A stretch of DNA of 64,000 nt, from assembly GCA_964588985.1 (NCBI GenBank), contig CAZPQW010000015.1, forward strand, positions 1 through 64,000. The letters are read 5' to 3'. The position numbers and the translations under genes are program-made. Shown piece after piece: positions 32,769-51,165 of the stretch. Numbering within the stretch: the stretch's first letter is position 1; every line of letters starts with the position of its first letter. The notes below the pieces were generated by a model that was given only the letters and a program-made list of their open reading frames with translations, ran no database searches and had not been told where the DNA came from. Origin of the DNA: an uncultured Solirubrobacteraceae bacterium. Its GTDB lineage: Bacteria > Actinomycetota > Thermoleophilia > Solirubrobacterales > Solirubrobacteraceae.

Positions 32769-33539
32769 TCAGCGGCGCCAGGGCCAGGGTCGTTGCGCAG
32801 CGCGCGCGGGCAGGTGTTCGAGCGCGGGCCGAGGGGGGATCGGTCCGCCGTGGAGGATCGCCGCGGGCACCTCCTCGGCGAGCCACTCCGTCAGCTCGCC
32901 CAACCCGGCCTGCTCGAGCTCTTCGCGGATGCCCGGGGCGCGGCCCTCGAGGTCGTGCGCGTCGGAGGCCACGTTGTGGACCAGCTCTTCCTCCACCAGC
33001 TGCATGGCGAAACGGCGCACCGTGCCCCCGAAGCGACCGACGAGCGACCCCGCGGTGATCGACGTCAACACGCCGTCCGCCACGAGCGAGCGCAGCATGC
33101 CGGGATCGCGATGGATCGCGGGACAGCGCTCCGGATGGGCGAGCAGGATGCGGTGCCCTCGACTCTGCAGCTCTGCCGCGACCGGCTCGAGCGTCGGGGC
33201 CACGGGTGCGAACGGCGGCTCGAGCAGGATCCACTCGCCCCCACCGAGACGCAGCCGCTCCAGCTGAGGACCCTCGATCTCCGCGACCGCGGTCATGGCG
33301 ATCTCCGCGCCCGGGAGGATCTCGATCTCCACACCCTCCGCCGCGAGCCGCTCGGTCAGCTCGTCCACGCGAGCGCGGATCGTCTCCGGCCGGTTGGGGT
33401 AGCGCGCGCTCACGTGCGGCGTCGCGACGATCGTTCGCACCCCCGCCGCGGCCGAGGCGCGCGCCAGAGCCAGCGAGCCCTCGATCGTCTCCGGCCCGTC
33501 GTCGATGCCCGGGAGCACGTGGCAGTGGAGGTCGATCAC
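32769..33539 (-). CDS. CpsB/CapC-type PHP protein-tyrosine phosphatase
   Basis: IDLHCHVLPGIDDGP, VATPH, GAEI, LAHPERC, VASDAH. Confidence 0.95.
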   Translation of the reverse strand: MIDLHCHVLPGIDDGPETIEGSLALARASAAAGVRTIVATPHVSARYPNRPETIRARVDELTERLAAEGVEIEILPGAEIAMTAVAEIEGPQLERLRLGGGEWILLEPPFAPVAPTLEPVAAELQSRGHRILLAHPERCPAIHRDPGMLRSLVADGVLTSITAGSLVGRFGGTVRRFAMQLVEEELVHNVASDAHDLEGRAPGIREELEQAGLGELTEWLAEEVPAAILHGGPIPPRPALEHLPARAAQRPWPWRR

Positions 33540-33604
33540 TCGGACATACGTTAGGTCAGAGACCGGTCCTCCCCCAACGCCCACGCGGCGGTTATGATCG
33601 TGGC

Positions 33605-34048
33605 GTGTTCAAGTCGATCGTTGTCGGAACCGACGGCTCGGAGACTGCCACGAAGGCGGTCCGTCAGGCGGCCGACCTCGCTCGCTCGGTGGGCGCCAAG
33701 CTCGAGCTGGTCAGCGCGTATGAACCTGTCCCCGCCCAGCGCCTGAGCGACGAACGTCGTCAGGCGCCCGAGGACCTGCAATGGGCGATCAACCCGCGCG
33801 AGGATGTCGACGCGACGCTCGAGGCGGCCGCGGCCGTCGCGCGCGAGGCCGGCGTCGAGGTGGACGTGTACGCCCGCCAGGGCGACCCTGCGGATGCGAT
33901 TCTCGATGTCGCCGAGGAGCGCGAAGCCGACCTGATCGTGGTGGGCAACAAGGGCATGACCGGCGCCAAGCGCTTCCTGTTGGGCTCGGTGCCCAACAAG
34001 GTCTCACATCACGCGCCGTGCTCGGTGCTGATCATCCGCACCAGCTGA
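33605..34048 (+). CDS. Universal stress protein
   Basis: FKSIVVGTDGS, GDPADAIL, DLIVVGNKGMTG...LLGSV..KV.HHAPCSVLI; TATGAT 6 nt before GTG. Confidence 0.95.
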   Translation: MFKSIVVGTDGSETATKAVRQAADLARSVGAKLELVSAYEPVPAQRLSDERRQAPEDLQWAINPREDVDATLEAAAAVAREAGVEVDVYARQGDPADAILDVAEEREADLIVVGNKGMTGAKRFLLGSVPNKVSHHAPCSVLIIRTS

Positions 34049-34059
34049 GCGGCCGGCGG

Positions 34060-35142
34060 CTAGCTCGCCATCCACCACTCGCCGTCGAGCCGCGTCATCA
34101 GCGCGTGCCCGGAGGTGACGGCGCCGAGCAGGTCGGTGTCGCGGGCGTGGATCAGCGAGCGTGCGCTGAAGCGGAAGAGCGCCCCGCGGTGGGCGACCTC
34201 CGCCAGCAGGTTCGCCTCGACGCGCCCCTGCACCGCCGCGCCGCCGTGCGCGACGGCGTGCGCGAACAGGCTGTCGAGCACCGCGCCCATCTGGCGCTCG
34301 CGCGCCGCTATCTGCAGGACCTGGCAAGCCTCGTCCCGCTTGGCGTAGTAGATGTACCAGCCGAGCATGCGCCCGGCGGCGTCGCGGACGAGGCGCCGGT
34401 GCGGAGTGCCCCAGGTGCGGTTGTGGGGCAGCTCCGCGAACAGCCACTCCAACCCCTCGACCGTGTAGTCGGGCACCAGCCGCAGCGACTTCGCCACCGC
34501 CGGCAGGCTGTCCAGTAACAGCTCGGGCGTGAGCTCCTCGTCGGTCGTGGTCAGGCCCGTGGGCGCCTTGAAATAGCGCAGCCGCTCGGTCGGGATGTCC
34601 AGCAGCGGGAGCAGCCGCCGCGCGCGCGGCTTGATGTGCTCGCGCACGTGCAGGTTGATCTGCATTGCGCGATTGCCGGTGTAGCTAAGCGGGCGAAACA
34701 CGCGCACCCACACCATGCTGCTCGGGTGCATCATCTGCCCGCCCACCAGTTCGAAGATCTGGCGGATCTCGTCCGAGGCGCCGTCGGTGATCGTGAGATC
34801 CTGCGCGCCGCCGAAGAAGCGCCGCAGCAGCCTCGCCCCGACACCGAGGTTGCGGACCTTGGGGTGGGCGATCAACGGTCCGCCCGCGGCCAGCCGCACA
34901 GGTCGGCCGTCGAAGCGCATCGGGCGCACGTGCGAGCCGATGAAGCCGAGGATCTCCCCCGAGTCGTCGACGTACACGAGGCTCGGGATCTCGGGGTCGA
35001 ACCAGGGGTTGTCGAACAGCGTGCGCTCGAGCCACGGCGCGAGTTCCGCGGGCGGTATGCGCCAGTCGGAGGCGTCCACGACTTTGTACAGCTCCGCCAC
35101 CTCCGGGATCTCGTCCCTGCGCATCGGGCGCATCTCGCTCAC
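34060..35142 (-). CDS. GNAT-family acyltransferase (two-domain)
   Basis: IRPM-like start (MRPM), GEILGFIG, AHPKVRNLGVGARLL motif A, second domain GRMLGWYIYY; GTGA-coupled to the carrier gene. Confidence 0.8.
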   Translation of the reverse strand: MSEMRPMRRDEIPEVAELYKVVDASDWRIPPAELAPWLERTLFDNPWFDPEIPSLVYVDDSGEILGFIGSHVRPMRFDGRPVRLAAGGPLIAHPKVRNLGVGARLLRRFFGGAQDLTITDGASDEIRQIFELVGGQMMHPSSMVWVRVFRPLSYTGNRAMQINLHVREHIKPRARRLLPLLDIPTERLRYFKAPTGLTTTDEELTPELLLDSLPAVAKSLRLVPDYTVEGLEWLFAELPHNRTWGTPHRRLVRDAAGRMLGWYIYYAKRDEACQVLQIAARERQMGAVLDSLFAHAVAHGGAAVQGRVEANLLAEVAHRGALFRFSARSLIHARDTDLLGAVTSGHALMTRLDGEWWMAS

Positions 35143-35390
35143 GAGGACACCTCCGCCGACTCGATCATCCTGGCCATGGTCGAGAGTGTGCGCAGGGAAT
35201 CGATCTCCAGCGAGTCGAGCGGGATCTCGATCCCGAACTCCTGCTCGATCGCGAACAGCAGCGACACGAGCGTGAGGGAGTCCAGCAGCGCCCCATCGAT
35301 GATGTCGAGGTCCGGCGCGGGCGCGGACATGCTGAGCGTGTCCTCGAAGATGCGCCCGATGCGCGCGACGATCTCCTGTTCACTCGTCAT
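35139..35390 (-). CDS. Acyl/aminoacyl carrier protein (DltC-like)
   Basis: Acidic 83 aa; LLDSLTLVSLL phosphopantetheine Ser; IEQEFGIEIP. Confidence 0.92.
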   Translation of the reverse strand: MTSEQEIVARIGRIFEDTLSMSAPAPDLDIIDGALLDSLTLVSLLFAIEQEFGIEIPLDSLEIDSLRTLSTMARMIESAEVSS

Positions 35391-36945
35391 TGGATAGCGC
35401 CGCGAATCGTTCTTTGAGCAGCCGTCGGTCGGCCTTGCCGCTCACGTTGCGCGGGAGCGATTCGAGCTCGAGCCATTGCGTGGGCAGCATGTAGCTAGGC
35501 AACGTGTCGGCAAGCGCGCTGCGCAGCTTGAGCTGGTCCAGCTCGGCGCCCACGCGTGGCGACCAGGCGCAGCAGATGCTCGCGCCCTCGAAGCCGTCGC
35601 TCTCCACCGCCACCACCGCGCATTCCGCCACGCCGTCGACTGCGGTGAGGGCGGTCTCGATCTCACCCAGCTCGATGCGGTAGCCGCGGCTCTTGATCTG
35701 GGAGTCCACGCGTCCCACGTAGTGCAGGACGCCGTCCTCGTCCACGCGTCCGAGGTCGCCCGTGCGATACAGGCGCAGGCCGCTGTCGTGATGGACGACG
35801 AACGCCGCGTCGGTCTTCTCCCGGTCGCGCCAGTAGCCGGGGCTCAGTCCCGCGCCCTCGATGTACAGCTCGCCGATCTCACCGGGCGCCACCGTCCGCA
35901 GCTGCTCGTCGAGCACGACGATGTCCTCGCCTGCGCAGGGAACGCCGATCGGGATCGGCACGGTGGTGTCCCGCGGAGCGCTCTCGACGGTGTGAAAGCT
36001 CGACGCGATCGTCGCCTCGGTCGGCCCGTACAGGTTCGTGTAGCTCGGCTGGGGCACGCGCTCCATCCAGTGGGCGAGCACCGCTGGCGCGAGCACCTCT
36101 CCGCACCAGATCACGCGACGCAGCGCGGGGAAGTCTGCCTCCTCGATCGCGTTTCCGCTGACCATGTAGGCGAACGTGGAGGGCACCGAGAACCACTGCG
36201 TGAGCTCCGAGTCGCGGATGAACCGCGCGAGCTGCGAAGGCAGCAGCGTGCCCGGTGGAACCAGGTGCAGCTCCGCGCCGCTGGAGAGCGTGCCGTAGAT
36301 GTCGAACGTGGAGAGGTCGAAGTGCAGCGGCGGGTGGCCGGAGATGCGATCGCCCGGACGGTGGCCGAAGTGGGCGAGCGCCCAATCGAGGAACGCGCTC
36401 ACCATCGCGTGTGTGATCACGACGCCCTTGGGCGTGCCGGTGGAGCCGGAGGTGAACAGGATGTGCGCGGGATCGGAGGGTGAGCTCGCGGTGGGGAGGG
36501 GCGCGTCGTCGAGGCTCGAGAACGCCTCGGGTCCGAACGCCGCCTGCTCGAGTGCGCCCTCGACGGAGCCCAGCTCCGTTCCGCCCAGCTCGAGCGTGTC
36601 CGCGAGCTTGCCCGCCTTCTCACACGCGAGCACCAGCCGCGGCTCGGCGGAGGAGAGAATCTTGTTCACGCGCGGGGCGGGGCTCGCGATGTCCACCGGT
36701 ACGTACACGCCGCCTGCCTTGAGCGTCGCCAGCATGCTCACGATCGCCATCGGCGCCTTCGGCTGCAGCAGCACCACGCGATCGCCCTGACGGACGCCCC
36801 GTTCGAGCAGCAGCCGTGCGAGCTGGTTGCTCGTGCGCTCCAGCTCGCCGTAGGTGAGCTCCTGCGAGCCCATCGCCACGGCGCGTGCGGTCGGCCGCTC
36901 CCGCGCGGAGAGTGAGACTCGCTCGTGCAGCAGCATCGGCGCCAT
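35380..36945 (-). CDS. Stand-alone amino-acid adenylation enzyme (DltA-like)
   Basis: LTYGEL, FTSGSTGTPKG, FDLS, WCGE, NLYGPTEAT, GELYIEG, YRTGDL, GRVDSQIKSRGYRIELGEIE, LPSYMLP, SGK; no condensation domain. Confidence 0.93.
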   Translation of the reverse strand: MAPMLLHERVSLSARERPTARAVAMGSQELTYGELERTSNQLARLLLERGVRQGDRVVLLQPKAPMAIVSMLATLKAGGVYVPVDIASPAPRVNKILSSAEPRLVLACEKAGKLADTLELGGTELGSVEGALEQAAFGPEAFSSLDDAPLPTASSPSDPAHILFTSGSTGTPKGVVITHAMVSAFLDWALAHFGHRPGDRISGHPPLHFDLSTFDIYGTLSSGAELHLVPPGTLLPSQLARFIRDSELTQWFSVPSTFAYMVSGNAIEEADFPALRRVIWCGEVLAPAVLAHWMERVPQPSYTNLYGPTEATIASSFHTVESAPRDTTVPIPIGVPCAGEDIVVLDEQLRTVAPGEIGELYIEGAGLSPGYWRDREKTDAAFVVHHDSGLRLYRTGDLGRVDEDGVLHYVGRVDSQIKSRGYRIELGEIETALTAVDGVAECAVVAVESDGFEGASICCAWSPRVGAELDQLKLRSALADTLPSYMLPTQWLELESLPRNVSGKADRRLLKERFAALSNDE

Positions 36946-36963
36946 CCCAGCCAGCTCCTGCGC

Positions 36964-37956
36964 TCAGGACGCGTTCGCCCGCGCCTGCTCGAAAACCACA
37001 CCGATGTGGTGCAGCTCCTCCTCGGAGGCGGGTATGTCGAGGATGAAAGAGTGAAAGCCGAGGTCGACGTAGCGGCCGAGCTCGGCCGCGACCTGCTCGT
37101 GGCTGCCGACCAGGTAGGGGCAGAACGTGGCGTAGTTCTCGAACGGCCACAGCCAGTAGGGGTCGTCCTCGACCGCCGTCTGCGCCGCCATGTCCGACAG
37201 CTGGCGATGCCAGTGTGAATCGGACACCTTCATCGCGAGCTTGTGCGCGATCTGACCCTTGCGGTCGTCGGGGAAACGCTCGCGTGCGACGCTCCACGCC
37301 TCCTCGCCGCTCTCGCGCGTGACGATGCCCACACGTATCCCGGAGGCCTCGCCGCCCTGGTCGGCCTCTTCGCCGGAGCGCTTGGGGTACTTCACCGGCA
37401 CCGCGCCGATCCGCCCGGCCGCCTCGAGCCCGGCCGGCGATGACCCGGAGATGAACAGGCCGGGTTGCAGATCGCTCGACAGCTCGGGGGCGAGACTCAG
37501 GTTTGACACCGAGTAGTACTCACCTGTGAAGGTGACGGTCTCGCCCGCCAACAGGCGTGTGACGATCTGGGTGTACTCCACCGTGCGCTCGTAGCGCTCG
37601 TCGTGAGGTGTGTCGTCACACAGCGCGAGCAGGTCGTTGCGAAATCCTCCCGCGACCATGTTCAGGTACACGCGACGCCCGTGGAGATACCCGAGCGTGC
37701 TCACCATCTTCGCGACCGAGTACGGATGCATGTACGCGGACTGCACCGCCACGAGCGGCGCGAGGCGCTCGGTGTGTTCGATGACCGTCTGGGAGACGAG
37801 CCACGGGTCGGCGATGCCGTTGTCCGTGTAGACGAGCATCCCCTCGCATCCGGCCGCCTCGCTCCAGCGGGCCGTGTCGATCACGCGCTGTAAGTACTCG
37901 TCCGGCGAACTGTCCCGGGATTGCGGACAGGTCGAGAATATGGCGAGGTCGGGCAC
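36964..37956 (-). CDS. LLM-class (luciferase-like) flavin-dependent oxidoreductase
   Basis: A..SE.AG, DPW, TERL.PLVAVQ, HPY.VAK...TL...GRR..LN.VAG, RYER..EY, F.GEYY, ISGSSPAG, LVGS.EQVA. Confidence 0.9.
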   Translation of the reverse strand: MPDLAIFSTCPQSRDSSPDEYLQRVIDTARWSEAAGCEGMLVYTDNGIADPWLVSQTVIEHTERLAPLVAVQSAYMHPYSVAKMVSTLGYLHGRRVYLNMVAGGFRNDLLALCDDTPHDERYERTVEYTQIVTRLLAGETVTFTGEYYSVSNLSLAPELSSDLQPGLFISGSSPAGLEAAGRIGAVPVKYPKRSGEEADQGGEASGIRVGIVTRESGEEAWSVARERFPDDRKGQIAHKLAMKVSDSHWHRQLSDMAAQTAVEDDPYWLWPFENYATFCPYLVGSHEQVAAELGRYVDLGFHSFILDIPASEEELHHIGVVFEQARANAS

Positions 37957-37992
37957 GGTGTTGTTTTCCTCTTGGCCGCGAGTCTAGGCCAC

Positions 37993-39744
37993 TCAGCGCT
38001 TGCGCACAAGGAAATCCTCGAGGAACAGCGCCTCGATGCCCGTTCCCAGAAATGTGTCCAATGCCTCGGCGGGAGTGTTCACGATCGCCTGGCCTTTGAC
38101 GTTGAAGCTCGTGTTGAGGAGCATCCTGCGTCCGGTGTGAGCGCCGACCGACTCGAGCAGCGTGTGAAACTCGCCGTTGTCCTCCTTTGAGACGGTCTGC
38201 ACGCGCGCGGATCCGTCCACGTGTGTGATCGCCGGAAGTCCCGCGCGATGCTCGGGGCGAACGTCGCGGTTGATCGTCATATAGGGGAGCGCCGTTCCGG
38301 CCGGGGCGTCGAACCAGCGATCGACCTCCTCGAGCGCAACGGCGGGCGCGAACGGACGGAACGACTCGCGCATCTTCACCAGCGCGTTCACACGGTCGCG
38401 CATGTCCGCCCTCCCTGGATCGGCGAGGATCGAGCGGTGCCCGAGGGCGCGAGGGCCGAACTCCATCCGCCCGCGGTACCACGCGATCACCTCGCCCGCC
38501 GCGATCAGCCGTGCCGCGGACTCGCACACCTCGTCCAACGACCCCAGGCGCGTCGCCTCGACACGGTCGTCGTAATCGCCGAGCGCGCTTTCGATCGACT
38601 CGACCGAGTGCGCGGGACCGTAGAACGGGGTGGGAGAGCGACGGTTGACGATCTCGCCGGCAAGCGATGCGCGATGCAGCGCCGCGCCGAGCGCGGAGCC
38701 ATCGTCGGCGGCGGCCGGCTGGACGTATATCTCCTCGAACGCGCCCGACGCGAGCAGCTTGCCGTTCGCGGTCGTGTTCAGCGCCACCCCGCCCGCCAGC
38801 GCCAGCCGCCTCATCGAGAGCTGCCTGCCGAAGTGCGAGCACGTGTGCTGGATGGCCCGATCGAGACACGCCTGCAGGCCGGCCGCCACATCCTCGTGCT
38901 CGGAGGCGATCTCCGACTCCGGCTCGCGCGCCGCGATCAGTCGTTCCCCCAGATACCGCCGCGCGGCGAGGTGGTTCTCGCGCTCCTCGCGCTCGCCGAG
39001 CTTCAACGCCGCGATGCTCCAGCCGCCGTCGTCGGTGAACCGCACCGCGTCGTCGAAGAAAGCGCGGAAGCGCTCGGGGTCTCCGTATGGGGCGAGGCCC
39101 ATGATCTTGTACTCGTCGGAGTTGAAGTCGAAGCCGAGGTGCAGCGTGATGAGCGAGTAGAAGATTCCGATCGAGTCGGCCGCGGAGATCCTGTGGATCA
39201 GCTCCAGCGTCCCACCGCTCGTCCTGTAGATGGACGCTCCGTGCGCCTCGCCCATGCCGTCGATCACAGCCACCATGCACTCCTCCCAGCCGGAGGTGAA
39301 GTACGCGGAGGCGGCGTGGGAGAGATGGTGGTCGACGTGCCGAATGCGATCCGTGGGGAACTCCGGGAAAGCGTCGGCGACCCTTGCGGCGAAGGCCTGC
39401 GGTGAAAGCACTTCGCGATACAGCTCGCTCGAGACGGGGCTGAGGGAATACGGCACGCGATATGGCCCGTAGTCGAACGAGTGCACGATCTCGTCGACGT
39501 CCGACAGCCGCAGGCCGGCCTGCGCGAGGCACGCTTCGATCGCCCCGACCGGGAAGTCGCCGGTGTGCTTGCGGCGAGCGATGCGCTCCTCGGCGACGGC
39601 GGCGACGACCTCGCCGTCGATCACGAGTGCGGCCGCCGAATCGTGCCCCTGCGAGATGCGGTATTCGCGCTCCTGCAGATCGGGCCAGTGCCGACGCTTG
39701 AAATCCATCGTCCCGTCGATGCCGGAGACGCCGACGATCCTCAT
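37993..39744 (-). CDS. Carbamoyltransferase (NodU/CmcH family)
   Basis: HDSAAAL...AVAEER..R.KH, HHLSHAASAY, DGMGE, EYKIMGLAPYG, LAGGVALN, EFGPRALGHRSILADP, RESFRPFAP, HVDGSARVQTV, LNTSFN. Confidence 0.95.
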   Translation of the reverse strand: MRIVGVSGIDGTMDFKRRHWPDLQEREYRISQGHDSAAALVIDGEVVAAVAEERIARRKHTGDFPVGAIEACLAQAGLRLSDVDEIVHSFDYGPYRVPYSLSPVSSELYREVLSPQAFAARVADAFPEFPTDRIRHVDHHLSHAASAYFTSGWEECMVAVIDGMGEAHGASIYRTSGGTLELIHRISAADSIGIFYSLITLHLGFDFNSDEYKIMGLAPYGDPERFRAFFDDAVRFTDDGGWSIAALKLGEREERENHLAARRYLGERLIAAREPESEIASEHEDVAAGLQACLDRAIQHTCSHFGRQLSMRRLALAGGVALNTTANGKLLASGAFEEIYVQPAAADDGSALGAALHRASLAGEIVNRRSPTPFYGPAHSVESIESALGDYDDRVEATRLGSLDEVCESAARLIAAGEVIAWYRGRMEFGPRALGHRSILADPGRADMRDRVNALVKMRESFRPFAPAVALEEVDRWFDAPAGTALPYMTINRDVRPEHRAGLPAITHVDGSARVQTVSKEDNGEFHTLLESVGAHTGRRMLLNTSFNVKGQAIVNTPAEALDTFLGTGIEALFLEDFLVRKR

Positions 39745-39816: not shown

Positions 39817-40836
39817 ATGCGTCCTCTCGTGGTGCCATACCTGTACGTTCACGGCCCCGGCGAGTCGTTCGACTATCCCTCCAGCCGCTCGCAGGGACGA
39901 TCCGCGCAGCTTGCGGCCCGCTACCTGGAGTGCGTGCTCGTGCAGGCCGGCTCGCTGCGACTGCGCGATGTCGACTGCGACGTGGCGCTCGTCACCAACG
40001 TTGCGGATCGAAGCGCCGTGGGCAGACGCGGCGCGCGCCTGCTGGAGGAGATCGAGGCGCTTGGAGTGGAGGTCGTGCACGCCGACTACGAGCACCGTCC
40101 GTCCGTGGAGATCGCCACGTTCGCCGCCTCCAGGTACGTATTCGACGCGATCGCCGCGGTCGCCGGCGAGGGAGCCCCGCAGCGGCAGATCTGGCTCGTG
40201 GACGTGGACTGCGTGTGGGTCGATCCGGCGAAGGTGTTCGCCGCCGCGCCCGCCTCCCCGGGCATCGGCTGCATCCACATCCCCTACCCGCCCGACTGGG
40301 AGCTGTACGGGTTCACGCCTCAGACGATGGGCGAGCTCGCGCATCGCCTCGGCGCCTCAGACACCTCACTGCGGTGGGTGGGCGGCGAGCTGCTGGCGGG
40401 AACGACCGTGGACCTGCGCGCGCTTGTCTCCGACTGCGAGCAGCTCGAGCGCGAGCTGGCCGCGCAGGGTCAGGCGCTCACGACCGAGGAGCAGCTGCTC
40501 TCGCTCGCGGGCGCGCTCGGACGCGTCCAGTTCCACGACATGTCGAGCGTCGCGCAGCGCATCTGGACCGGTCCGCGCCACGGCGCTCCCGCGGTCAGCT
40601 CGCCGGGGTCGCTCGGGCTGTGGCACCTGCCGAGCGAGAAGGGCCTCGGCTTTCGCCGCGCCGCGCGCGCGATCGTCTCGGGGCACGCCGGGCGCCTCGT
40701 TCGCGACCTCGACTCGCCGGAGCGCGCGCTCAAGCGGTTCAACGTGGCGGGCGCCGGCCTGCCCCGCCGGATTCGCGACGACAGCTGGCTGACGATGCAG
40801 CGGCTGCGCGATCGCCTGCTGTCCAGGGCCGGGTAG
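39817..40836 (+). CDS. Hypothetical protein, probable GT-A fold transferase
   Basis: VALVTN, WLVDVDCVW (DxD), GGELLAG, EEQLLS, WHLPSEK; layout resembles GT8-like enzymes. Confidence 0.6.
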   Translation: MRPLVVPYLYVHGPGESFDYPSSRSQGRSAQLAARYLECVLVQAGSLRLRDVDCDVALVTNVADRSAVGRRGARLLEEIEALGVEVVHADYEHRPSVEIATFAASRYVFDAIAAVAGEGAPQRQIWLVDVDCVWVDPAKVFAAAPASPGIGCIHIPYPPDWELYGFTPQTMGELAHRLGASDTSLRWVGGELLAGTTVDLRALVSDCEQLERELAAQGQALTTEEQLLSLAGALGRVQFHDMSSVAQRIWTGPRHGAPAVSSPGSLGLWHLPSEKGLGFRRAARAIVSGHAGRLVRDLDSPERALKRFNVAGAGLPRRIRDDSWLTMQRLRDRLLSRAG

Positions 40837-40844
40837 TTACCCTC

Positions 40845-42074
40845 GTGGCTGTGAGCGCCGAGCCAGCCGACGCCCCCGCACCCGAGCAAGCCGTCGCCGG
40901 GCGGGTTCTCGTCGTCGAGCAGGGGGGGCGCGGTGGCGTCGCGGACTACACCGCCGAGCTGACGCGCGCGCTCGCGGCCCAGGGCTGGCAGGTGACGCTG
41001 GCGACCGCGGACGACCACCTCTTTCAGCCGACCCCGGGAGTCGAGGTCCGCCGCGTGTTCCACTACGTGCGCGGGCACGACCAGGTGGCGCAGGCGGTCC
41101 GCCGGACGGGGCTCGGCCCGATCGTCAACTCGCTGCGCTTCCTCGCTGCGATCCCCCGTCTGCTGAGGCTCGCCCGCCATGCCGACGTGATCCACACGGA
41201 GGGGTGGGAGTACGCGCCGCTCGGCGTGATCGCGGTCGCCGCCCTGCGGCTGGCGCGCGTGCCGATCGTGCAGACCTCGCACAACACGTTCGAGCGCGGC
41301 CGCTCGCTGGACCGCAGCCATGCGTGGCTCGCGCGGCTGACGTCCCACACGATCGTCCATACCGAGGCCGATCTCGCGCGCGTCCCGAGCACGGCGGCGG
41401 GGCGCGTGAGCGTGATCCCCCACGGCGAGTACGGCGGCCTCGCGCGCGCAGGAGGCGCGGCCGACCGCGACGCGTCCCGCGCCGAGCTGGGCATCGCGCC
41501 TGACACGCCCGTCACCCTGCTGTTCGGCCAACTGCGCCCGGACAAGGGCCTCGGCGACACGCTCGCCGCGGTCGCGCGCCTCCCCGGTCTGCACCTGCTG
41601 GTGGCCGGCGAGGAGCGCGGGGCGCTGGCGGGCGCGAGCGAGCAACTGGCCGACCCGCGGCTGGAGGGCCGTGTGACGGTGCGCGAGGGGTTCCTCGACA
41701 TGAGCGAGGCGGCCAGGCTGTTCGCGGCGAGCGACACGGTCGTGCTCCCCTACATGGTCGCCAGCCAGAGCGGGGTGCTCCTGCTCGCGTACGGCTTCGC
41801 GCGGCCGGTGGTGGTGTATCCGGTCGGGGGGCTGCTCGAGTCGGTCGTCGACGGCGAGACCGGCTGGGTCTGCGCGCGGGCGGACGTCGACGCGCTCGTC
41901 GACGCGCTCGCGCAGGCGATGGAGGCGGGCTGGATCGAGTGTCGCCGGCGCGGGGAGGCGGGCGCTCGCCTGGCCCAGGAGCGCTACGCGTGGCCGGCGA
42001 TCGCGCGCAGCACCGGGCAGGTCTATCGCGCCTTGCTAGCTGGTATGACTGCCACGTGGCCCGCCACCGCATAG
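40845..42074 (+). CDS. Glycosyltransferase family 4
   Basis: GGVADYT, TSHN, IPHG, LFGQLRPDKG, VVLPY..ASQSGVLLLAYGFARPVV. Confidence 0.9.
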   Translation: MAVSAEPADAPAPEQAVAGRVLVVEQGGRGGVADYTAELTRALAAQGWQVTLATADDHLFQPTPGVEVRRVFHYVRGHDQVAQAVRRTGLGPIVNSLRFLAAIPRLLRLARHADVIHTEGWEYAPLGVIAVAALRLARVPIVQTSHNTFERGRSLDRSHAWLARLTSHTIVHTEADLARVPSTAAGRVSVIPHGEYGGLARAGGAADRDASRAELGIAPDTPVTLLFGQLRPDKGLGDTLAAVARLPGLHLLVAGEERGALAGASEQLADPRLEGRVTVREGFLDMSEAARLFAASDTVVLPYMVASQSGVLLLAYGFARPVVVYPVGGLLESVVDGETGWVCARADVDALVDALAQAMEAGWIECRRRGEAGARLAQERYAWPAIARSTGQVYRALLAGMTATWPATA

Positions 42075-44329
42075 TCTCGATCCAGACGACCGAGGAACGC
42101 GGCGGGGCGGAGTACGCGAACGTCGATCTGCTGCAGGCGCTGCGTGGTCGCGGCCACGACGTGGTGCTGCTCACGAACGTGCCGGATATCGCCGATGGCA
42201 CGGGCGTGCCCGCCAGGTCGATCGACCTCGGTCCCAAGCTTGCGCGACGCAGCGCCGCGCGCGTGATGGTCCAGGCGCCGCTCACGCTGGTGCGCCTGGC
42301 GCGCGCGCTGCGCGCCGAGCGGCCCGTCGGAGCGGTGCTGCTGCACTTCAAGAAGGAGCAGCTGCTGTGCTCGCTGCTGCCGCGCCGGCTGACCGGCGAG
42401 ATCGTGTGGGCGGAGTGGGGTCCGGTGCCTTTGCAGATGCGCCATGGGCCCGGGCGCTGGCTGTACGCGTTGGCGGCTCGGCGCGTGCGCGAGATCATCG
42501 CGGTCTCGGCGGGGACCAGGCGCACGGTGGTGGACACCGGCGTGCCCGAGGGGAAGGTGAAGGTCGTCCCCAATCTGGTCGATACCGACAACGTGACTTT
42601 CGATCCGGTCGGACGCGAGACGCTTCGCCGTGCCTGGGGGACCGACGATCGGACCCTGGTGGTGGGCTGCGTGTCGCGCTTTCAGAAGCGCAAGCGCAAC
42701 GACGTGGCGATCGATGCGATGGCGCACGTCGACGGCGACGTTCGTCTCGTGCTCGCCGGCGAGGGCGAGGAGGAGGGTGCGCTGCGCGAGCGCGCCGCGC
42801 CGTTCGGCGATCGCGTGCGCTTCGAGCCGAACGTGCGCGGGCACGTCGAGTCGTTCCTGTCCGCCTGCGACCTGCTGGTGTTCACGCCAAGCCCCACCGA
42901 GGGCGAGCCCAGGATCATCGTGATGGCCCAACTCGTGGGGGTGCCAGTGATCTCCACCGACCCCGAGGGCGCCGAGGGGCTGATACCGGAGGGCGGCGGC
43001 ACGATCGTCTCGCCGTCGCACGACCCGCTCGCGCTCGCGGCGACGATCGAAGCGTACCGAGACGATCCGGAGCGCATCAGGCGAGAGGGCGAGCTGGCGC
43101 AACAGATAACGCGCGAAACCCACGACCTGGAGAAGACGCTCAACGAGGTCAAACACGCCCTCGCTCTGGACGACGAGGCGCCCGCCGCGGTCAGGCCGCT
43201 GAAGATCGTGAGCGTACTCACGACCGACTCCAGCGGAGGCGCGGAGTTCGCCGCCGTGGAGATGCTCGAGGCGCTGCGCCAACGGGGCCACGACACGGTG
43301 CTGTTGAGCGACATGCCGGGCATCGGACGCGGCACCGACGTGACCGTGGTGGGGATCGACACCGGCCCGAAGCTCTCGACGCGCACCTGGTCGCGGCTGG
43401 CCAAGCGCTGGCCGCTGCTGCTCAAACGCTTCTCGCGAGCGCTCGATGCGCAGCTGCCCTACGACGTGCTGCTCGTCCACTACAAGAAGGAGCAGCTGAT
43501 GGCGGGCATGCTGCCCAAGCGGCTGCGCGCGACGACCGTGTGGGCCGAGTGGGGTCCCGTGCCGATACCGCTGCGAAGCGGCATCCCGCGACTTGCCTAC
43601 CTCGCGGCATCAAAGCGGACTCCGCTAGTGATGGCGATCTCCGAGGGCACGCGCAAGTCGGTCGCCGGCGTGGGTGTCGCGCAGAAGATGGTCGTGGTGC
43701 CGAACGTGATGCGCACCGACGAGATCCGCTTCACCGACGAGGGTCGAGCGCGCGTGCGCCAGGAGCTGGGCATCCCGGCCGATGCGTTCGTCGTCGGCTG
43801 CATCTCTCGCTTCCACCGCAAGAAGCGCAACGACGTCGTCGTCGAGGCGGTGCGCGAAATGGACGATCCGCGCGTCCACCTGATCCTCGCGGGAGACGGC
43901 GAAACCGAGGAGCAGCTGCGCGAGCTGGCGGCCCCGCTGGGCGAGCGTGCGCACTTCATCTCCACGCCTGGCTCTGAGGTGCCCGATGTGCTGTCGGCGT
44001 TCGACGTGTCGGTGTTCTGCCCGAGCCCGACCGAGGGCGCTCCGCGCGCGGTGATCCTCGGCATGCTCGCCTCGCGCCCCTGCCTCGCGACCGGGCCGGA
44101 GGGCGTGGCGGACATGATCACCGATGACATCGGTGGGATCGCCGATCCGGAGAACGAGCCCGCGTCGCTGCGGGTGCTGCTCGAGCGCTACGTGGGAGAT
44201 CCCGAGCGGGTCGAGCGGGAGGGCGCGGCCGCCCGCGCCCTCGCCGAGCAGACCTATGCGGCGCCTGTGGTGGCGGAGGCGATCGAGCAGCTCTTCAGGG
44301 AAGCCATCGACTCCAATGGGCGCGCATGA
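42056..44329 (+). CDS. Tandem double GT4 glycosyltransferase
   Basis: Two homologous GT-B units (GGAE...L..RGHD.VLL; H.KKEQL; WAEWGPVP; GC.SRF..KRNDV; PSPTEG.PR). Confidence 0.9.
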   Translation: MARHRIVSIQTTEERGGAEYANVDLLQALRGRGHDVVLLTNVPDIADGTGVPARSIDLGPKLARRSAARVMVQAPLTLVRLARALRAERPVGAVLLHFKKEQLLCSLLPRRLTGEIVWAEWGPVPLQMRHGPGRWLYALAARRVREIIAVSAGTRRTVVDTGVPEGKVKVVPNLVDTDNVTFDPVGRETLRRAWGTDDRTLVVGCVSRFQKRKRNDVAIDAMAHVDGDVRLVLAGEGEEEGALRERAAPFGDRVRFEPNVRGHVESFLSACDLLVFTPSPTEGEPRIIVMAQLVGVPVISTDPEGAEGLIPEGGGTIVSPSHDPLALAATIEAYRDDPERIRREGELAQQITRETHDLEKTLNEVKHALALDDEAPAAVRPLKIVSVLTTDSSGGAEFAAVEMLEALRQRGHDTVLLSDMPGIGRGTDVTVVGIDTGPKLSTRTWSRLAKRWPLLLKRFSRALDAQLPYDVLLVHYKKEQLMAGMLPKRLRATTVWAEWGPVPIPLRSGIPRLAYLAASKRTPLVMAISEGTRKSVAGVGVAQKMVVVPNVMRTDEIRFTDEGRARVRQELGIPADAFVVGCISRFHRKKRNDVVVEAVREMDDPRVHLILAGDGETEEQLRELAAPLGERAHFISTPGSEVPDVLSAFDVSVFCPSPTEGAPRAVILGMLASRPCLATGPEGVADMITDDIGGIADPENEPASLRVLLERYVGDPERVEREGAAARALAEQTYAAPVVAEAIEQLFREAIDSNGRA

Positions 44330-45186
44330 TCAAGTCGTGGCTCAAGCGGCTGTCGCCGTCGCTGCAGGATCGGCTGCGACGGCTCTCTCGTCTGCGCTGG
44401 CTCGAGAAGGCACGCCTCACGAGGTACTACGGCGTGTCCTTGTGGGCTCGGCCTCTGCGGGTCGCCAGGTACGTGCTGTGGGCCCCCGACGTGGGCGACT
44501 TCTCCTACGAACTGGACAACGAGGTGGAGCTGGTGTCGTTCCTCGCGAGCGCGCTCGCGCTGGAGCCCGCGCTGGTGCGGCGCTATCTCGACGAGATCCA
44601 CACGTCGCCCGAGGTCACCCATGACCTCGCCACGACGGTTCGCCGGCGGCCCGACATGTCGCGTCGGCCCGGTCTCGGCCATCGCGTGGCGTGGTATGTG
44701 GTCGCCCGCGCGATCAAGCCGCGGCTGGTCGTCGAGACGGGCATCAAGCACGGGCTGGGAGCGCTCGTGCTGCTCGTGGCGCTGGACCGCAACGCACGCG
44801 AAGGCAGCGAGGGAAGGCTGATCTCCTTCGACCCCGACCCGGCCAGCGGTTGGGTCGTCCCCGCGGCGATGCGCGGCAGCTGGAGGCCGGTGTTCGAGAC
44901 GAGCTTCGACGCCTTCGACGAGCAGCTCGACGGCGAGCAGATCGACCTGTTCGTGTGCGACACGCCCCCCGACACGGAGATCGAGGACTTCGAGATGCAC
45001 GCGGCGCTGCGCCACGCGGCGCCCGGGATCGTGCTGATCGCCGCCAACGGCGATCGCACCACGGTGCTGCCCGACCTCGCGGCCGAGCGCGGCGGCGACT
45101 ACCGCTTCTTCGCCGAGCGCCCGCGGCACCCGATCTACCCAGGCGGCGGGCTGGGGCTGGGGCTGGCGCTGGGGGTGCGGTCATGA
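44326..45186 (+). CDS. Class I SAM-dependent methyltransferase (Methyltransf_24-like)
   Basis: RAIKPRLVVETGIKHGLG, GRLISFD, IDLFVCD. Confidence 0.8.
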   Translation: MIKSWLKRLSPSLQDRLRRLSRLRWLEKARLTRYYGVSLWARPLRVARYVLWAPDVGDFSYELDNEVELVSFLASALALEPALVRRYLDEIHTSPEVTHDLATTVRRRPDMSRRPGLGHRVAWYVVARAIKPRLVVETGIKHGLGALVLLVALDRNAREGSEGRLISFDPDPASGWVVPAAMRGSWRPVFETSFDAFDEQLDGEQIDLFVCDTPPDTEIEDFEMHAALRHAAPGIVLIAANGDRTTVLPDLAAERGGDYRFFAERPRHPIYPGGGLGLGLALGVRS

Positions 45187-45911
45187 GGCGCGCGGTGATC
45201 CTCGCGGGCGGCGAGGGCACGCGCCTGCGCCCCTACACCACCGTGCTGCCCAAGCCGCTGATGCCGATCGGCGACCGGCCGGTGCTCGACATCGTTGTGC
45301 GCCAGCTGAAGGCGCACGGCTTCGAGCGGATCACGATGGCGACCGGCTACCTCGCGGAGCTGATCGAGGCGTTCTTCCGCGACGGCTCGAGCTACGGCAT
45401 CCCGATCGACTACTACCGCGAGCCCGAGCCGCTCGGCACCGTCGGAGCGCTCGCCCTGATCGGCGGCCTCGCCGCCCAGGACGTGCTCGTGATGAACGGC
45501 GACGTGCTCACCGACATCGACTACGGCGCGCTGCTCGCGCGCCATCAGGCGAGCGACGCGGCGGCGACGATCGCGACCAAGACGCGCGAGATACGCGTGT
45601 CGCTGGGCGTGCTGCGCTTCGGCGAGGATGGCGACCCCACGCGCCTGACCGGCTACGACGAGAAGCCCACGATCGACTACACCGCGAGCATGGGCGTCTA
45701 CTGCTTCGCGCCGCGCGCGCTCGGCTTCATCGAGCCCGGCGAGCGCCTCGACTTCCCCGACCTGATCCTTCGCCTGATCGCCGCCGGGGAGATCGTGCGG
45801 GCCTGGCCGAGCGAGGACTACTGGCTCGACATCGGCCGCCACGACGACTACGAGCTAGCCCAGGAAGAGTTCGAGTCGGTGCGGGATCGGCTGTTGCCGC
45901 CGGAGGTTTAG
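45183..45911 (+). CDS. Sugar-phosphate nucleotidyltransferase
   Basis: AVILAGGEGTRLRPYT..LPKPL.PIG, EPEPLGT.G, VMNGD, WLDIG. Confidence 0.93.
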   Translation: MRRAVILAGGEGTRLRPYTTVLPKPLMPIGDRPVLDIVVRQLKAHGFERITMATGYLAELIEAFFRDGSSYGIPIDYYREPEPLGTVGALALIGGLAAQDVLVMNGDVLTDIDYGALLARHQASDAAATIATKTREIRVSLGVLRFGEDGDPTRLTGYDEKPTIDYTASMGVYCFAPRALGFIEPGERLDFPDLILRLIAAGEIVRAWPSEDYWLDIGRHDDYELAQEEFESVRDRLLPPEV

Positions 45912-46031
45912 ACTGGCCGCGCATGAGCGCACGCCGTGATGAGCCTGGTCGGAAAGGGTGTGAGTCCATGTGTCGCGACAATCGTGACAATTGAACTCAG
46001 CGTTGCTTTGCGCGGTGGTATCGTCACGCTC

Positions 46032-47741
46032 ATGGGATGCTGCCCTGGAGGCCGATGGCTCACGACGCTCTTGTTTGCCGCGGCGGTTGTTGTCCTGAGC
46101 CTTGGTACCGGTATAGCTGGTGCGACACCGTCGTACGAACTCATCGGCCATGTGACATCAACACAGGAATTCAACATATCGCACGAACCCGTAAGCGGCA
46201 TCGGGGGAACCGTCGTGTCGGTTATCGATCCGTCTACTGGAGAAACCGCCCGGACGGCGGAAACGAACAGCACCGGCCTCTACAGAGTGACCGTCCCCAC
46301 CGGGATCTACGACGTACTGTTCACGCCGCCCGCCGGTTCGGGCTATCCCTCGCGCCGTGTATCGAGCATTCTGCTAGGTGTGAACAGCACCTTGAGTATT
46401 GTCCTCACGAACTCGGCTGCCGTATATCACTGGTCAGGGATCGTGAGAGGTTTGGGCGGCGCGCCTATCGAAGGCATGAAAATCCTGCTCGAAGGTGGAG
46501 GCGTCCAGGCGAGTAGCGAAACAGATGCGAGTGGCGCGTTCTCCCTGCCGGTCGGAGCGGAAGAAGACGCGCTGAAGTTGAATTTCAACCAGAACAACCA
46601 GAGCGTCGCGCCAAAGATCGTCCGGATATCGGGCCTACGGACCGTTGCGGGGAACATTGAAGAAGACCTCCAACTGCCGGTGCACAAGCTAACGATCACC
46701 TTTAAGGGACCGCACGAAGAACTATTCAGCGGCATCGAAACATCGTTCGGGGTGAACAACATAACGGGGCCGATCGGTGGAGTGACGATCACGTCGGCAT
46801 CGGCCCAGATGAGCGCAACCTCGGACCTGTCCGGCAACGCGGTCCTCGTCGTACCGACGTTCAGCGGCAGCCTTGGCGCGGGATACCAGCCCCCGCCAGG
46901 ATCGGTCGGGCTGGGCCGTGCGCAAACCACGATCGAAGGCTCCTCGGGCGAACAGCATTTGACCGTCGCCTTCCCGCTCGCGCTCACGATCAACCAAGCG
47001 CCAGATGGTCTCAACGGCTGGTTCGTGAGCGTGCCCGCTGTGGTTGACGCACGCGTTGATGGGACGGAATTCGGCTCTCTGATCTGCGTCCTCGACGGAA
47101 AGAAAGTCAACGGAACCCCAGAAGTCATCCCGAGTGGAAGCGTCGAGCCCATCACCATCAACAACGCGGGCAGGCACAACCTGGAATGCAGCGCGAAGGA
47201 TCACGCTGGGCACACAGAGACAGCCACGGCCGGCGTGCTAGTCGACCTCACGCCCCCTCCGGCGCCCCTTGCGCAAGCGGATCGCCCGCCCGACTACGCC
47301 GGCCGCGGCGGCTGGTATAGGAACTCCGTAATCGTGAGCTTCATAGCCCGGAGCGATCCCAAGCTTCCGGGCGGCGTCCCAGGAAGCGGCATCGACCCAG
47401 GCAGTCTGACGCTCCCCGAAAGCATCGCGACCAGTGGCGCTCATATCGCAACAGGAACGGTCGCGGACTTGGCTGGCAACGTCGCGAAGGTCACCAAACT
47501 CACGGTCAAAGTCGACGCGGACCCGCCAATCAGCTCGCTGATCTGCCCAGCCACCGTCGCCCGCGGCTCCGCGGCTCACGCAACCTGGCACGACTCAGAC
47601 GGCCAATCCGGCCTCGAAGGCTCTGCGACAGGCCGCGTGGCGCTCGACACGGCTACACGAGGCATCTTCTCTGCCGCGCACACTGCCACGGATAACGTCG
47701 GTCACTCGACCGATAGCAGCTGCGAATACGAAGTGATCTAA
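46032..47741 (+). CDS. Secreted beta-sandwich (carboxypeptidase-regulatory-like/Ig-like) repeat protein, lower GC
   Basis: Signal peptide; TNSTGLYRV.VP.G.YDV, TDASGAFSL, TSDLSGN repeats; NGWF, DLTPP, GWY, D.AGN, DNVGH Ig-like motifs; TATCGT 7 nt before ATG. Confidence 0.75.
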   Translation: MGCCPGGRWLTTLLFAAAVVVLSLGTGIAGATPSYELIGHVTSTQEFNISHEPVSGIGGTVVSVIDPSTGETARTAETNSTGLYRVTVPTGIYDVLFTPPAGSGYPSRRVSSILLGVNSTLSIVLTNSAAVYHWSGIVRGLGGAPIEGMKILLEGGGVQASSETDASGAFSLPVGAEEDALKLNFNQNNQSVAPKIVRISGLRTVAGNIEEDLQLPVHKLTITFKGPHEELFSGIETSFGVNNITGPIGGVTITSASAQMSATSDLSGNAVLVVPTFSGSLGAGYQPPPGSVGLGRAQTTIEGSSGEQHLTVAFPLALTINQAPDGLNGWFVSVPAVVDARVDGTEFGSLICVLDGKKVNGTPEVIPSGSVEPITINNAGRHNLECSAKDHAGHTETATAGVLVDLTPPPAPLAQADRPPDYAGRGGWYRNSVIVSFIARSDPKLPGGVPGSGIDPGSLTLPESIATSGAHIATGTVADLAGNVAKVTKLTVKVDADPPISSLICPATVARGSAAHATWHDSDGQSGLEGSATGRVALDTATRGIFSAAHTATDNVGHSTDSSCEYEVI

Positions 47742-47776
47742 CGCTGAGCGAGCAGCGCGCGTTCGCTACCCACGGG

Positions 47777-50064: not shown

Positions 50065-50084
50065 CGGCGAACGCGGCCCGTTGC

Positions 50085-51062: not shown

Positions 51063-51165
51063 GCGAGCCATGCTAACCACGGCATCGGCAGGCGACGGCC
51101 GCGACCTTAGACCGGCGGGCGGGGACGTGGGTACGGCCTTGAGCCGCTGTAGCATCAGCCGCGAG

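Follow-up and report, generated by a model that had tools for sequence, protein, structure and literature searches.

The window analysed here comprises 64,000 nt from an uncultured Solirubrobacteraceae bacterium (assembly GCA_964588985.1, contig CAZPQW010000015.1, positions 1 to 64,000), and its positions 34060-39744 hold five genes that form a conserved, uncharacterised cassette within a Wzx/Wzy-type polysaccharide locus. They encode a carbamoyltransferase (CT), a luciferase-like monooxygenase (LLM), a stand-alone adenylation (A) enzyme, a small acyl or peptidyl carrier protein (ACP), and an acyltransferase of the GNAT superfamily. The interpretation favored here, to which we give a probability of about 0.5, is that a small aminoacyl group is tailored while bound to the carrier, and that the GNAT then transfers the modified group to the amine of a sugar. 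A pathway of this general kind had been proposed earlier from the DNA alone (the sequence-only reading).

Cassette structure and setting

All five genes are on the minus strand in one orientation. The GNAT gene (34060-35142, 360 aa) overlaps the carrier gene (35139-35390, 83 aa) by 4 bp (GTGA), and the carrier gene overlaps that of the A enzyme (35380-36945, 521 aa) by 11 bp; gaps of 18 and 36 bp then separate the A gene from the LLM gene (36964-37956, 330 aa) and the LLM gene from the CT gene (37993-39744, 583 aa). The CT start was placed at 39744, where homology begins (MRIVGVSG); an ATG at 40344 makes the open reading frame (ORF) too long. The tight, co-oriented, overlapping arrangement described in the sequence-only reading is borne out by these coordinates, and so are the absences that it listed: a Pfam scan found no condensation or thioesterase domain in the cassette ORFs, and neither MBOAT (PF03062, for DltB) nor DltD (PF04914) has a match anywhere in the genome (3.41 Mb, 95.9% complete), while control genomes were matched by both. 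Elsewhere the same genome encodes a phosphopantetheinyl transferase, on contig C1, and a flavin reductase, on contig C12.

By Pfam, the whole window (G+C ~70%; closest relatives Solirubrobacteraceae and Solirubrobacterales metagenome-assembled genomes, MAGs) is given over to glycan biosynthesis. Its assembly and export genes include two Bac_transf initiating transferases, three Wzy_C proteins, a Polysacc_synt flippase, a Wzc-like P-loop protein, and a CpsB phosphatase; its sugar genes include many glycosyltransferases of families GT4 and GT2, UDP-sugar dehydrogenases, dehydratases, three DegT aminotransferases, a hexapeptide acyltransferase, and a nucleotidyltransferase. Wzx/Wzy-pathway genes lie on both flanks of the cassette.

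Conservation and linkage

An alignment of the GNAT was scanned over one genome per GTDB species, which gave 181 relative-encoding stretches, kept as 78 distinct loci. A full-length GNAT gene was found by tblastn in 74 of these, and counting used the 57 that have at least 4.5 kb on both sides. To be counted, a partner had to fall no more than 9 kb from the GNAT gene and to reach an identity threshold: at least 28% over 60% of the query for the ACP, 45% over 50% for the A enzyme, 50% over 50% for the LLM, 35% for the CT, and 30% for a formyltransferase (FT) found in some loci. Gene calls for the loci used a GC3 heuristic that misses genes (it called the ACP in 31 loci, tblastn in more), and the counts given here are from tblastn.

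Of these 57 loci, 51 have the ACP, 48 the LLM, and 47 the A enzyme, and 45 have both A enzyme and LLM. The CT is found in 26 and the FT in 18, never both (0/57). Nearly all loci with an LLM (42/48) have one or the other, and only two have a CT or FT without an LLM. The co-occurrence of all five families that had been expected therefore holds for ACP, LLM, A enzyme, and GNAT, but not for the CT, which the FT replaces in a sizeable share of the loci. The near-constant company that ACP, LLM, and A enzyme keep with the GNAT, and the near-constant pairing of the LLM with one of two strictly exclusive one-carbon acyl transferases, argue that these enzymes work on one shared moiety and that the carrier thioester is the acyl donor of the GNAT.

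The usual gene order is [CT or FT]-LLM-A-ACP-GNAT. The LLM-A-ACP-GNAT part recurs in Solirubrobacterales, Gaiellaceae, Pseudonocardia, Actinomycetospora, and Acidimicrobiales; since the same order appears in several lineages, the arrangement is more than chance. The CT gene is co-oriented and upstream in most loci, divergent in four (L011-L013 and L033), and downstream of the GNAT gene in two (L017 and L041); in Actinomycetospora the genes run GNAT, a GT2-GT4 gene, CT, LLM, A, ACP. Apparent fusions in the database include LLM-A (P0123, P0127, P0130), FT-LLM (P0124, Xanthobacteraceae), an FT-LLM-A fragment (P0129), and DegT-LLM (P0122). The GNAT family is patchily distributed: it was found in 9 of 121 genomes in an even order-level sample, the window's own included, and in none of three other genomes of the window's genus.

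At least 34 of the 57 loci carry two or more glycan genes by cluster labels, a lower bound as only frequent families were labelled. This agrees with the expectation that such cassettes lie mostly in polysaccharide loci, although at least five of the eight loci examined by Pfam, from among 23 that were poorly labelled, have no glycan gene within 10 kb. The other three (L066, L078, and L055) have some glycan-type genes (UDP-GlcNAc 2-epimerase, GT4, flippase, FemAB-like Acetyltransf_6, Asn synthase). In six Actinomycetospora loci (L058, L062, L063, L065, L068, L071) the cassette is part of a compact island at ~10-18 kb of each locus, whose single glycosyltransferase is a 664-aa GT2-GT4 fusion, between xanthine/CO-dehydrogenase-like (MoCoBD) and CoxD/CoxE-like AAA/VWA genes; these strains are cultivable, and one has a complete genome. 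The cassette can also stand alone. Near two stand-alone FT-type cassettes in Pseudonocardia are giant ORFs of 1283 and 1547 aa (L023:17223-21074 and L072:10760-15403, both minus strand) that match no Pfam family at E<=1e-10, accompanied by a histidine kinase/LuxR pair and a 449-461-aa protein without a family.

Predicted substrate of the A enzyme

The A enzyme has AMP-binding (E 2e-82) and AMP-binding_C domains and passes the amino-acid adenylation model TIGR01733 (395.7 bits, cut-off 317.4). It does not belong to the DltA equivalogs (TIGR01734, 315.9 bits against 559.85; NF003417, 325.6 against 476), and it also falls below the cut-off for the exosortase-A-associated ligase (TIGR03098, 257.2 against 592.35). 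Full-length comparisons with PDB sequences place A domains of nonribosomal peptide synthetases (NRPSs) as close as DltA (LgrA ~224 bits per domain, GrsA 247, DltA 227). When the specificity region is compared, 4oxi is the top match of known structure (69.5 bits), ahead of Bacillus cereus DltA (58.6 bits). We take 4oxi to be the glycine-activating AlmE of Vibrio cholerae, although its name in the PDB table is "Enterobactin synthetase component F-related protein."

The ten-position specificity code in the sequence-only reading, DLFFICLIAK, was reproduced from motif anchors and from a HMMER alignment to DltA and 4oxi; it begins with Asp210 (the A4 Asp) and ends with Lys504 (the A10 Lys), the residues that in amino-acid adenylation domains contact the substrate's alpha-amino and carboxylate groups. 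It is identical to the 4oxi code (DLHLFCLIAK) at 7 of 10 positions and to that of B. cereus DltA (DLMTLCTVAK) at 5 of 10. In the D-Ala pocket of DltA, according to the available part of PMC8972799, Asp197 binds the amino group, and Leu197/198, Met200, and Cys268 form a small methyl cavity. The A enzyme keeps the Asp, Leu, and Cys and has Phe for Met; beyond the three kept residues, its pocket carries bulky hydrophobics (Phe, Phe, Ile, Leu, Ile). Retention of the three residues, with bulky side chains elsewhere in the pocket, argues for a very small alpha-amino acid as the substrate, with glycine ranked first and D- or L-alanine next. The sequence-only reading pointed to DltA-like motifs; the enzyme nevertheless falls short of equivalog membership, and its pocket is nearer to 4oxi than to DltA.

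The code is a family trait: of 64 clustered A-domain homologues, 50 show DLFF[ILVM]CLIAK in full and five truncated ones are consistent with it, while the other nine have different codes and come from variant loci. It is the same in loci with a CT, with an FT, and with neither.

The carrier (Pfam PP-binding, E 4e-8, 33.8 bits against 20.8) has the phosphopantetheine serine of the DSL motif, in LLDSLTL. Models of DltA and DltC rank near the head of the NCBIfam matches for the A enzyme and carrier; the carrier scores below every NCBIfam equivalog cut-off, and membership in DltC was rejected on score (31.7 bits against 68). The genome's other nine matches to the DltA model, in frames of 923 to 3779 aa, are all in a large NRPS cluster at ~128-172 kb of contig C1, which also carries its only ACPS-type phosphopantetheinyl transferase match.

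The monooxygenase

The LLM is a clear Bac_luciferase protein (E 4e-36, 125.5 bits against 27.9). Its best NCBIfam match is SsuD, at 118.8 bits against a cut-off of 518.2, and end-to-end alignment to PDB sequences gives 98 bits for MsuD and 90 for SsuD. In SsuD, His228 is catalytic and Arg297 is on a mobile loop. When the LLM is aligned to SsuD (1m41) with HMMER, Arg226 is retained, Gly stands in place of His228 and Ile in place of Cys54, and the Arg297 loop is missing. Membership in SsuD/MsuD was rejected on these grounds. The LLM thus belongs to the group-C flavin monooxygenases, in the SsuD clade; given the sub-threshold score, the replacement of His228, and the missing loop, it is not a desulfonating enzyme.

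An AlphaFold2 model (pLDDT 88.6) has as nearest structural neighbors SfnG (Z 29.3) and MsuD (Z 29.2), both at rmsd 2.6 over 289 residues; RutA, sulfoquinovose monooxygenase, and EmoA (Z 25.6) come next, with an OX domain from an NRPS/polyketide synthase (6ket, Z 22.7) further off. The nearest folds (SfnG, MsuD, and EmoA) hydroxylate carbon beside sulfur or nitrogen, which counts in favor of the oxygenation step proposed below. The match to TIGR04020 is slight (20.8 bits), and in the ESM Atlas the LLM falls into generic LLM clusters only.

Carbamoyl and formyl transfer

The CT belongs to the TobZ/NodU/CmcH family, with both a Kae1-like N domain (Carbam_trans_N, E 2e-55, 188.8 bits) and a YrdC-like C domain (Carbam_trans_C, E 3e-65, 219.4 bits). 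Full-length alignments give 375 bits for NovN, 349 for GdmN, and 273 for TobZ; NodU equivalog membership (NF041651) was rejected (153.5 bits against 1000). The Actinomycetospora CT shows only ~40% identity, compared to 59-64% for the LLM and A enzyme of the same loci, which suggests, as far as identity can tell, that it is a separate CT lineage.

The FT that takes the place of the CT elsewhere consists of Formyl_trans_N and Formyl_trans_C; among proteins of solved structure it comes closest to the ArnA formyltransferase domain (76 bits) and Fmt (62 bits). Fmt-like domains are known to formylate carrier- or tRNA-bound aminoacyl groups, a precedent for capping on the carrier.

The acyltransferase

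Pfam recognises the GNAT only weakly (Acetyltransf_1 over residues 33-108, 23.2 bits against 20.7), and no NCBIfam model matches it at E<=0.001. The weak call is upheld by an AlphaFold2 model (pLDDT 91, pTM 0.89), in which a single chain forms two GNAT lobes, a tandem GNAT. There are 555 homologues at E<=0.001 among 8000 candidates scored; those listed are mostly of ~360 aa, and in their sources they carry only hypothetical or generic GNAT names.

Foldseek returned almost only N-myristoyltransferases (NMTs) for this model, and a representative-based search was needed to bring in Eis, MshD, and glucosamine N-acetyltransferase. Its neighbors are NMT (Z 20.2, 306 residues), Eis (Z 18.5), the tandem GNAT MAB_4324 (Z 18.4), glucosamine N-acetyltransferases (Z 16-17), a tandem GNAT of the clavulanate pathway (Z 14.9), MshD (Z 14.4), and FemA and FemX (Z 10.4-10.8). 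NMT, Eis, glucosamine N-acetyltransferase, MshD, and FemX all acylate amines, amino sugars among them. The role in amine acylation that the sequence-only reading gave to this protein thus gains credence from the predicted fold.

In GNATs, an R-x-x-G-x-G loop binds the pantetheine pyrophosphate. One is present in the N-terminal lobe (R97-x-x-G-x-G102); G102 does not vary in alignments of 16 and 60 sequences, and R97 is at least 90% conserved in them.

Four variant GNAT loci (L024, L026, L057, and L032, the last from a Pseudomonadales MAG) have another A enzyme (~30% identity, DYNATSMRSK-like code), with a class I/II (AONS-like) aminotransferase and a carrier, and no LLM, CT, or FT. These loci suggest that the GNAT family also takes other carrier-bound acyl groups.

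A possible pathway

In the pathway envisaged, the A enzyme would adenylate a very small alpha-amino acid and load it as a thioester onto the 83-aa carrier, as the pocket suggests. The FMNH2-dependent LLM might then oxygenate the carrier-bound unit at C-alpha or nitrogen, and the CT would add a carbamoyl group at this stage, or in other lineages the ArnA/Fmt-like FT a formyl group; both actions are proposed from gene linkage. Finally, from its fold and context, the tandem GNAT may take the phosphopantetheine arm in its N-terminal lobe and transfer the acyl group to the free amine of a sugar, nucleotide- or lipid-linked, that the DegT aminotransferases close by would provide. Transfer would take place in the cytoplasm, without MBOAT or DltD, and the phosphopantetheinyl transferase and flavin reductase would come from elsewhere in the genome. 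The absence of MBOAT and DltD from the genome agrees with the cytoplasmic, MBOAT-independent route suggested earlier; such a route would not be new, however, since AlmEFG, in what could be consulted of PMC4278540, is already a precedent.

A rationale for the pairing of oxygenation with a one-carbon transfer can be offered: we infer that an alpha-hydroxy- or N-hydroxy-glycyl unit would need an N-acyl cap in order to persist. Taken to its most specific form, which we regard as improbable, the LLM would hydroxylate the nitrogen or C-alpha of carrier-bound glycine, the FT or CT would cap the same center, and the GNAT would graft the product onto a surface glycan. The products would be a hadacidin-like N-formyl-N-hydroxyglycyl unit (a hydroxamate), an N-hydroxyureido unit, or a stabilised N-acyl-alpha-hydroxyglycyl (ureidoglycolyl-type) unit. 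If this were true, the polysaccharide would bear a substituent able to bind metal or to react in some other way, and no glycan is known to carry one of this kind.

Weighing the alternatives

Several points tell against tailoring on the carrier followed by transfer to a sugar. The amino acid is a prediction from pocket similarity. With neither His228 nor the Arg297 loop, and with only a remote likeness to the OX domain, the chemistry proposed for the LLM is a guess. No ACP lies within 9 kb of the GNAT gene in six of the 57 loci, and the fusions are single database clusters each, which could reflect read-through in gene calling. The solved CT relatives NovN, GdmN, and TobZ, which we take, in part from their PDB names, to be O-carbamoyltransferases, modify the hydroxyl of a sugar or aglycone, not a carrier-bound amine; similarly, the nearest solved relative of the FT is the ArnA domain, which formylates a nucleotide-sugar amine. 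In five loci (L023, L039, L053, L060, and L072) Pfam found no glycan gene within 10 kb, and the neighbors are heme genes, UvrD, PlsC/GpsA, and two-component systems.

The labor might instead be divided as in the synthesis of Nod factors, which is possible though in our view doubtful: A enzyme, ACP, and GNAT would place plain glycine or alanine on a sugar amine, while the CT or FT, and perhaps the LLM, would act on the sugar itself, by O-carbamoylation of a neighboring hydroxyl or N-formylation of a second amine. The solved relatives of the CT, as O-carbamoyltransferases of sugars or aglycones, speak for this, as does the closeness of the FT to the sugar-nucleotide formyltransferase domain of ArnA; in 12 of the 57 loci polysaccharide deacetylase genes are found close to the module, in keeping with the logic of ArnA/ArnD and of NodB, two DegT genes near the cassette would allow a diamino sugar, and one database protein fuses DegT to an LLM. 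A sugar-directed CT or FT does not explain so readily why these enzymes are near-obligatory companions of the LLM (42/48) and mutually exclusive (0/57 with both), or why they stay directly beside it through several rearrangements, and the Actinomycetospora island, where gene clustering finds no DegT in the 10-kb flanks, makes a second sugar amine unlikely there. That the cassette is no more than DltA/DltC-type D-alanylation, with a GNAT in place of DltB/DltD and the LLM and CT as unrelated passengers, seems very improbable. The Asp, Leu, and Cys of the DltA D-Ala pocket are indeed kept, and DltA and DltC are among the top NCBIfam matches, but both proteins are far under the respective equivalog cut-offs, the pocket is nearer to 4oxi (7/10) than to DltA (5/10), and the genome has neither DltB nor DltD; the presence of the LLM in 48 of 57 loci, with the LLM-A fusions, speaks against a passenger role.

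It may also be that the acceptor is not a polysaccharide repeat but a lipid, peptidoglycan, another wall polymer, a small glycoside, or a free small metabolite, the glycan locus of the window being then one of several contexts. This we consider unlikely. It would account for the five of eight examined loci without a glycan gene within 10 kb and for the Actinomycetospora island, which has a single glycosyltransferase and lies between cox-like genes, and it would fit the small-molecule substrates of the tandem GNATs MshD and Eis; the closest functional precedent, AlmEFG, modifies lipid A, as reported in the part of PMC4278540 seen. Set against this are the 34 or more loci of 57 with at least two glycan genes, the Wzx/Wzy-pathway genes on both sides of the cassette in the window, and the lack, within the cassette, of a thioesterase, a condensation domain, or the kind of exporter that metabolite clusters usually have.

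Neighboring genes

The genes of the proposed acceptor pathway share the strand of the cassette and lie 8 kb away from it: two DegT sugar aminotransferases (47777-48916 and 48913-50064, minus strand), with PseC/ArnB-like models as best matches, and an NAD-dependent epimerase/dehydratase (50085-51188, minus strand), all below NCBIfam equivalog cut-offs. These three genes (47777-51188) likely supply the amino-sugar acceptor.

Divergent from the CT gene is a conserved hypothetical gene (39823-40836, plus strand) with no Pfam family and a single copy in the genome. By tblastn, its product is 42-49% identical to that of the gene adjoining the CT in L005, L015, and L030, and its gene cluster adjoins the CT in these and in L004, L014, and L016; in the ESM Atlas it falls into "hypothetical" clusters, and its ESM features are weakly GT8- or Mannosyl_trans3-like. 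The ~1.1-kb interval between the CT and GT4 genes is missing in L001 and L003; the idea that it is a mobile insertion was rejected, because it is single-copy, has only weak inverted repeats, and encodes a protein conserved beside the CT in other loci.

Further along the plus strand are a GT4 glycosyltransferase (~40833-42074) and a double-GT4 glycosyltransferase (~42041-44329), both recognised by Pfam (Glycos_transf_1/Glyco_transf_4) and by tblastn with neighbors in L001 and L006, then a Methyltransf_24 methyltransferase (44326-45186) and a sugar nucleotidyltransferase (~45192-45911), both by Pfam. A 601-aa protein with CarboxypepD_reg and Big_13 domains (45936-47741, plus strand) follows in the middle of the glycan locus; a local dip in G+C (0.629 at 46001-48000, ~0.70 elsewhere) overlies its gene.

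On the other side, a universal stress protein gene (~33605-34048, plus strand) adjoins the GNAT gene, and a CpsB/CapC-type phosphatase gene (32769-33584, minus strand) lies beyond it; both were assigned by Pfam, and both are conserved neighbors in close relatives. By tblastn the two are 71 and 97% identical to their counterparts in L001, the 97% being that of the universal stress protein, whose cluster is present in 13 loci and is beside or near the GNAT gene in close Solirubrobacterales loci. Between two blocks of glycan genes is an ORF (23222-24541, minus strand) that joins a domain like the small chain of ribonucleotide reductase (di-iron) to a C-terminal SCP2/Alkyl_sulf_C region, paired with a neighboring TetR gene.

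Comparison with known systems

The nearest functional parallel is AlmEFG of Vibrio cholerae El Tor, in which glycine is activated by an A enzyme, loaded on a carrier, and moved to lipid A by a cytoplasmic transferase (PMC4278540 and PMC12930378, as far as these texts were available). The cassette differs in its tandem GNAT, its LLM, its CT or FT, and its setting in polysaccharide loci of Actinomycetota. Shared features are the stand-alone A enzyme, the small carrier, and the absence of MBOAT, and the substrate predicted for the cassette is likewise a small amino acid; if 4oxi is AlmE, as we suppose, the pockets have 7 of 10 positions in common. AlmG belongs to a lipid A acyltransferase family and forms an ester on an acyl chain of lipid A. 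Among the window ORFs scanned, the only sign of such an enzyme was an insignificant Lip_A_acyltrans signal (E 0.13, ORF 54821-55771).

DltABCD, which acts on teichoic acids, likewise has an A enzyme and a carrier, and shares the Asp, Leu, and Cys pocket residues. It is distinguished by the low scores of the cassette proteins (315.9 bits against 559.85 and 31.7 against 68), by the genome's lack of DltB and DltD, by transfer through a GNAT, and by the additional LLM and CT. The ligase/GNAT set associated with exosortase A is set apart by the TIGR03098 score (257.2 against 592.35) and by a GNAT that matches no NCBIfam model at E<=0.001.

Nod factors are made by carrier-dependent N-acylation of a sugar amine (NodF/NodA) and carbamoylation by NodU. 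They offer the same combination of carrier-dependent sugar N-acylation with a carbamoyltransferase of the NodU family in one glycan pathway; NodA, however, does not belong to the GNATs, the group that is transferred is a fatty acyl from NodE/NodF, there is no A enzyme and no LLM, and the CT of the cassette is not a NodU equivalog (153.5 bits against 1000). The RfbK/RfbL pair of V. cholerae O1, a ligase and a carrier in the O-antigen locus, is proposed to activate the acyl group for perosamine (PMC12208996, in the portion available). Compared by description, it shares with the cassette an adenylate-forming ligase and carrier in a glycan locus, serving an acyl group for an amino sugar, but its substrate is a hydroxy acid, 2,4-dihydroxybutanoate (tetronate), not an amino acid, and its partner enzymes are others.

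For the monooxygenase, the closest parallel is in myxothiazol biosynthesis, where an NRPS-embedded monooxygenase acts on carrier-bound glycine and breaks its C-alpha-N bond (bioRxiv 10.1101/2024.10.28.620694, as far as available). Enzymes of this MtaG type are flavin monooxygenases acting on carrier-bound glycine, as is proposed for the LLM, and the OX domain 6ket is among the LLM's structural neighbors (Z 22.7); the LLM is free-standing, however, closer to SfnG and MsuD (Z 29), and scores just 20.8 bits with TIGR04020. The outcome in the cassette is probably a retained modified unit, not chain release as in the MtaG type.

A full-text literature search, whose coverage does not extend to subscription-only papers, found no description of this gene combination. 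Assigning a function to the GNAT family would annotate a recurrent, patchily distributed surface-variation module with hundreds of homologues, and since cultivable organisms carry the cassette (Actinomycetospora spp., Pseudonocardia sp. H11422), the hypothesis is directly testable. Aminoacylation by Dlt (teichoic acids) and by AlmEFG (lipid A) alters surface charge in both cases. If a modified aminoacyl group is indeed passed from the carrier to a sugar amine, carrier-dependent aminoacylation would extend to polysaccharide and amino-sugar N-acylation in Actinomycetota, and neither a tandem GNAT with a carrier-protein acyl donor nor an obligatory pairing of a flavin monooxygenase with a CT or FT would have a described counterpart in glycan biosynthesis. 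It is by this tandem GNAT as transferase, the obligatory LLM of the SsuD clade, and the alternative CT and FT partners that the cassette differs from AlmEFG, Dlt, and RfbK/RfbL.

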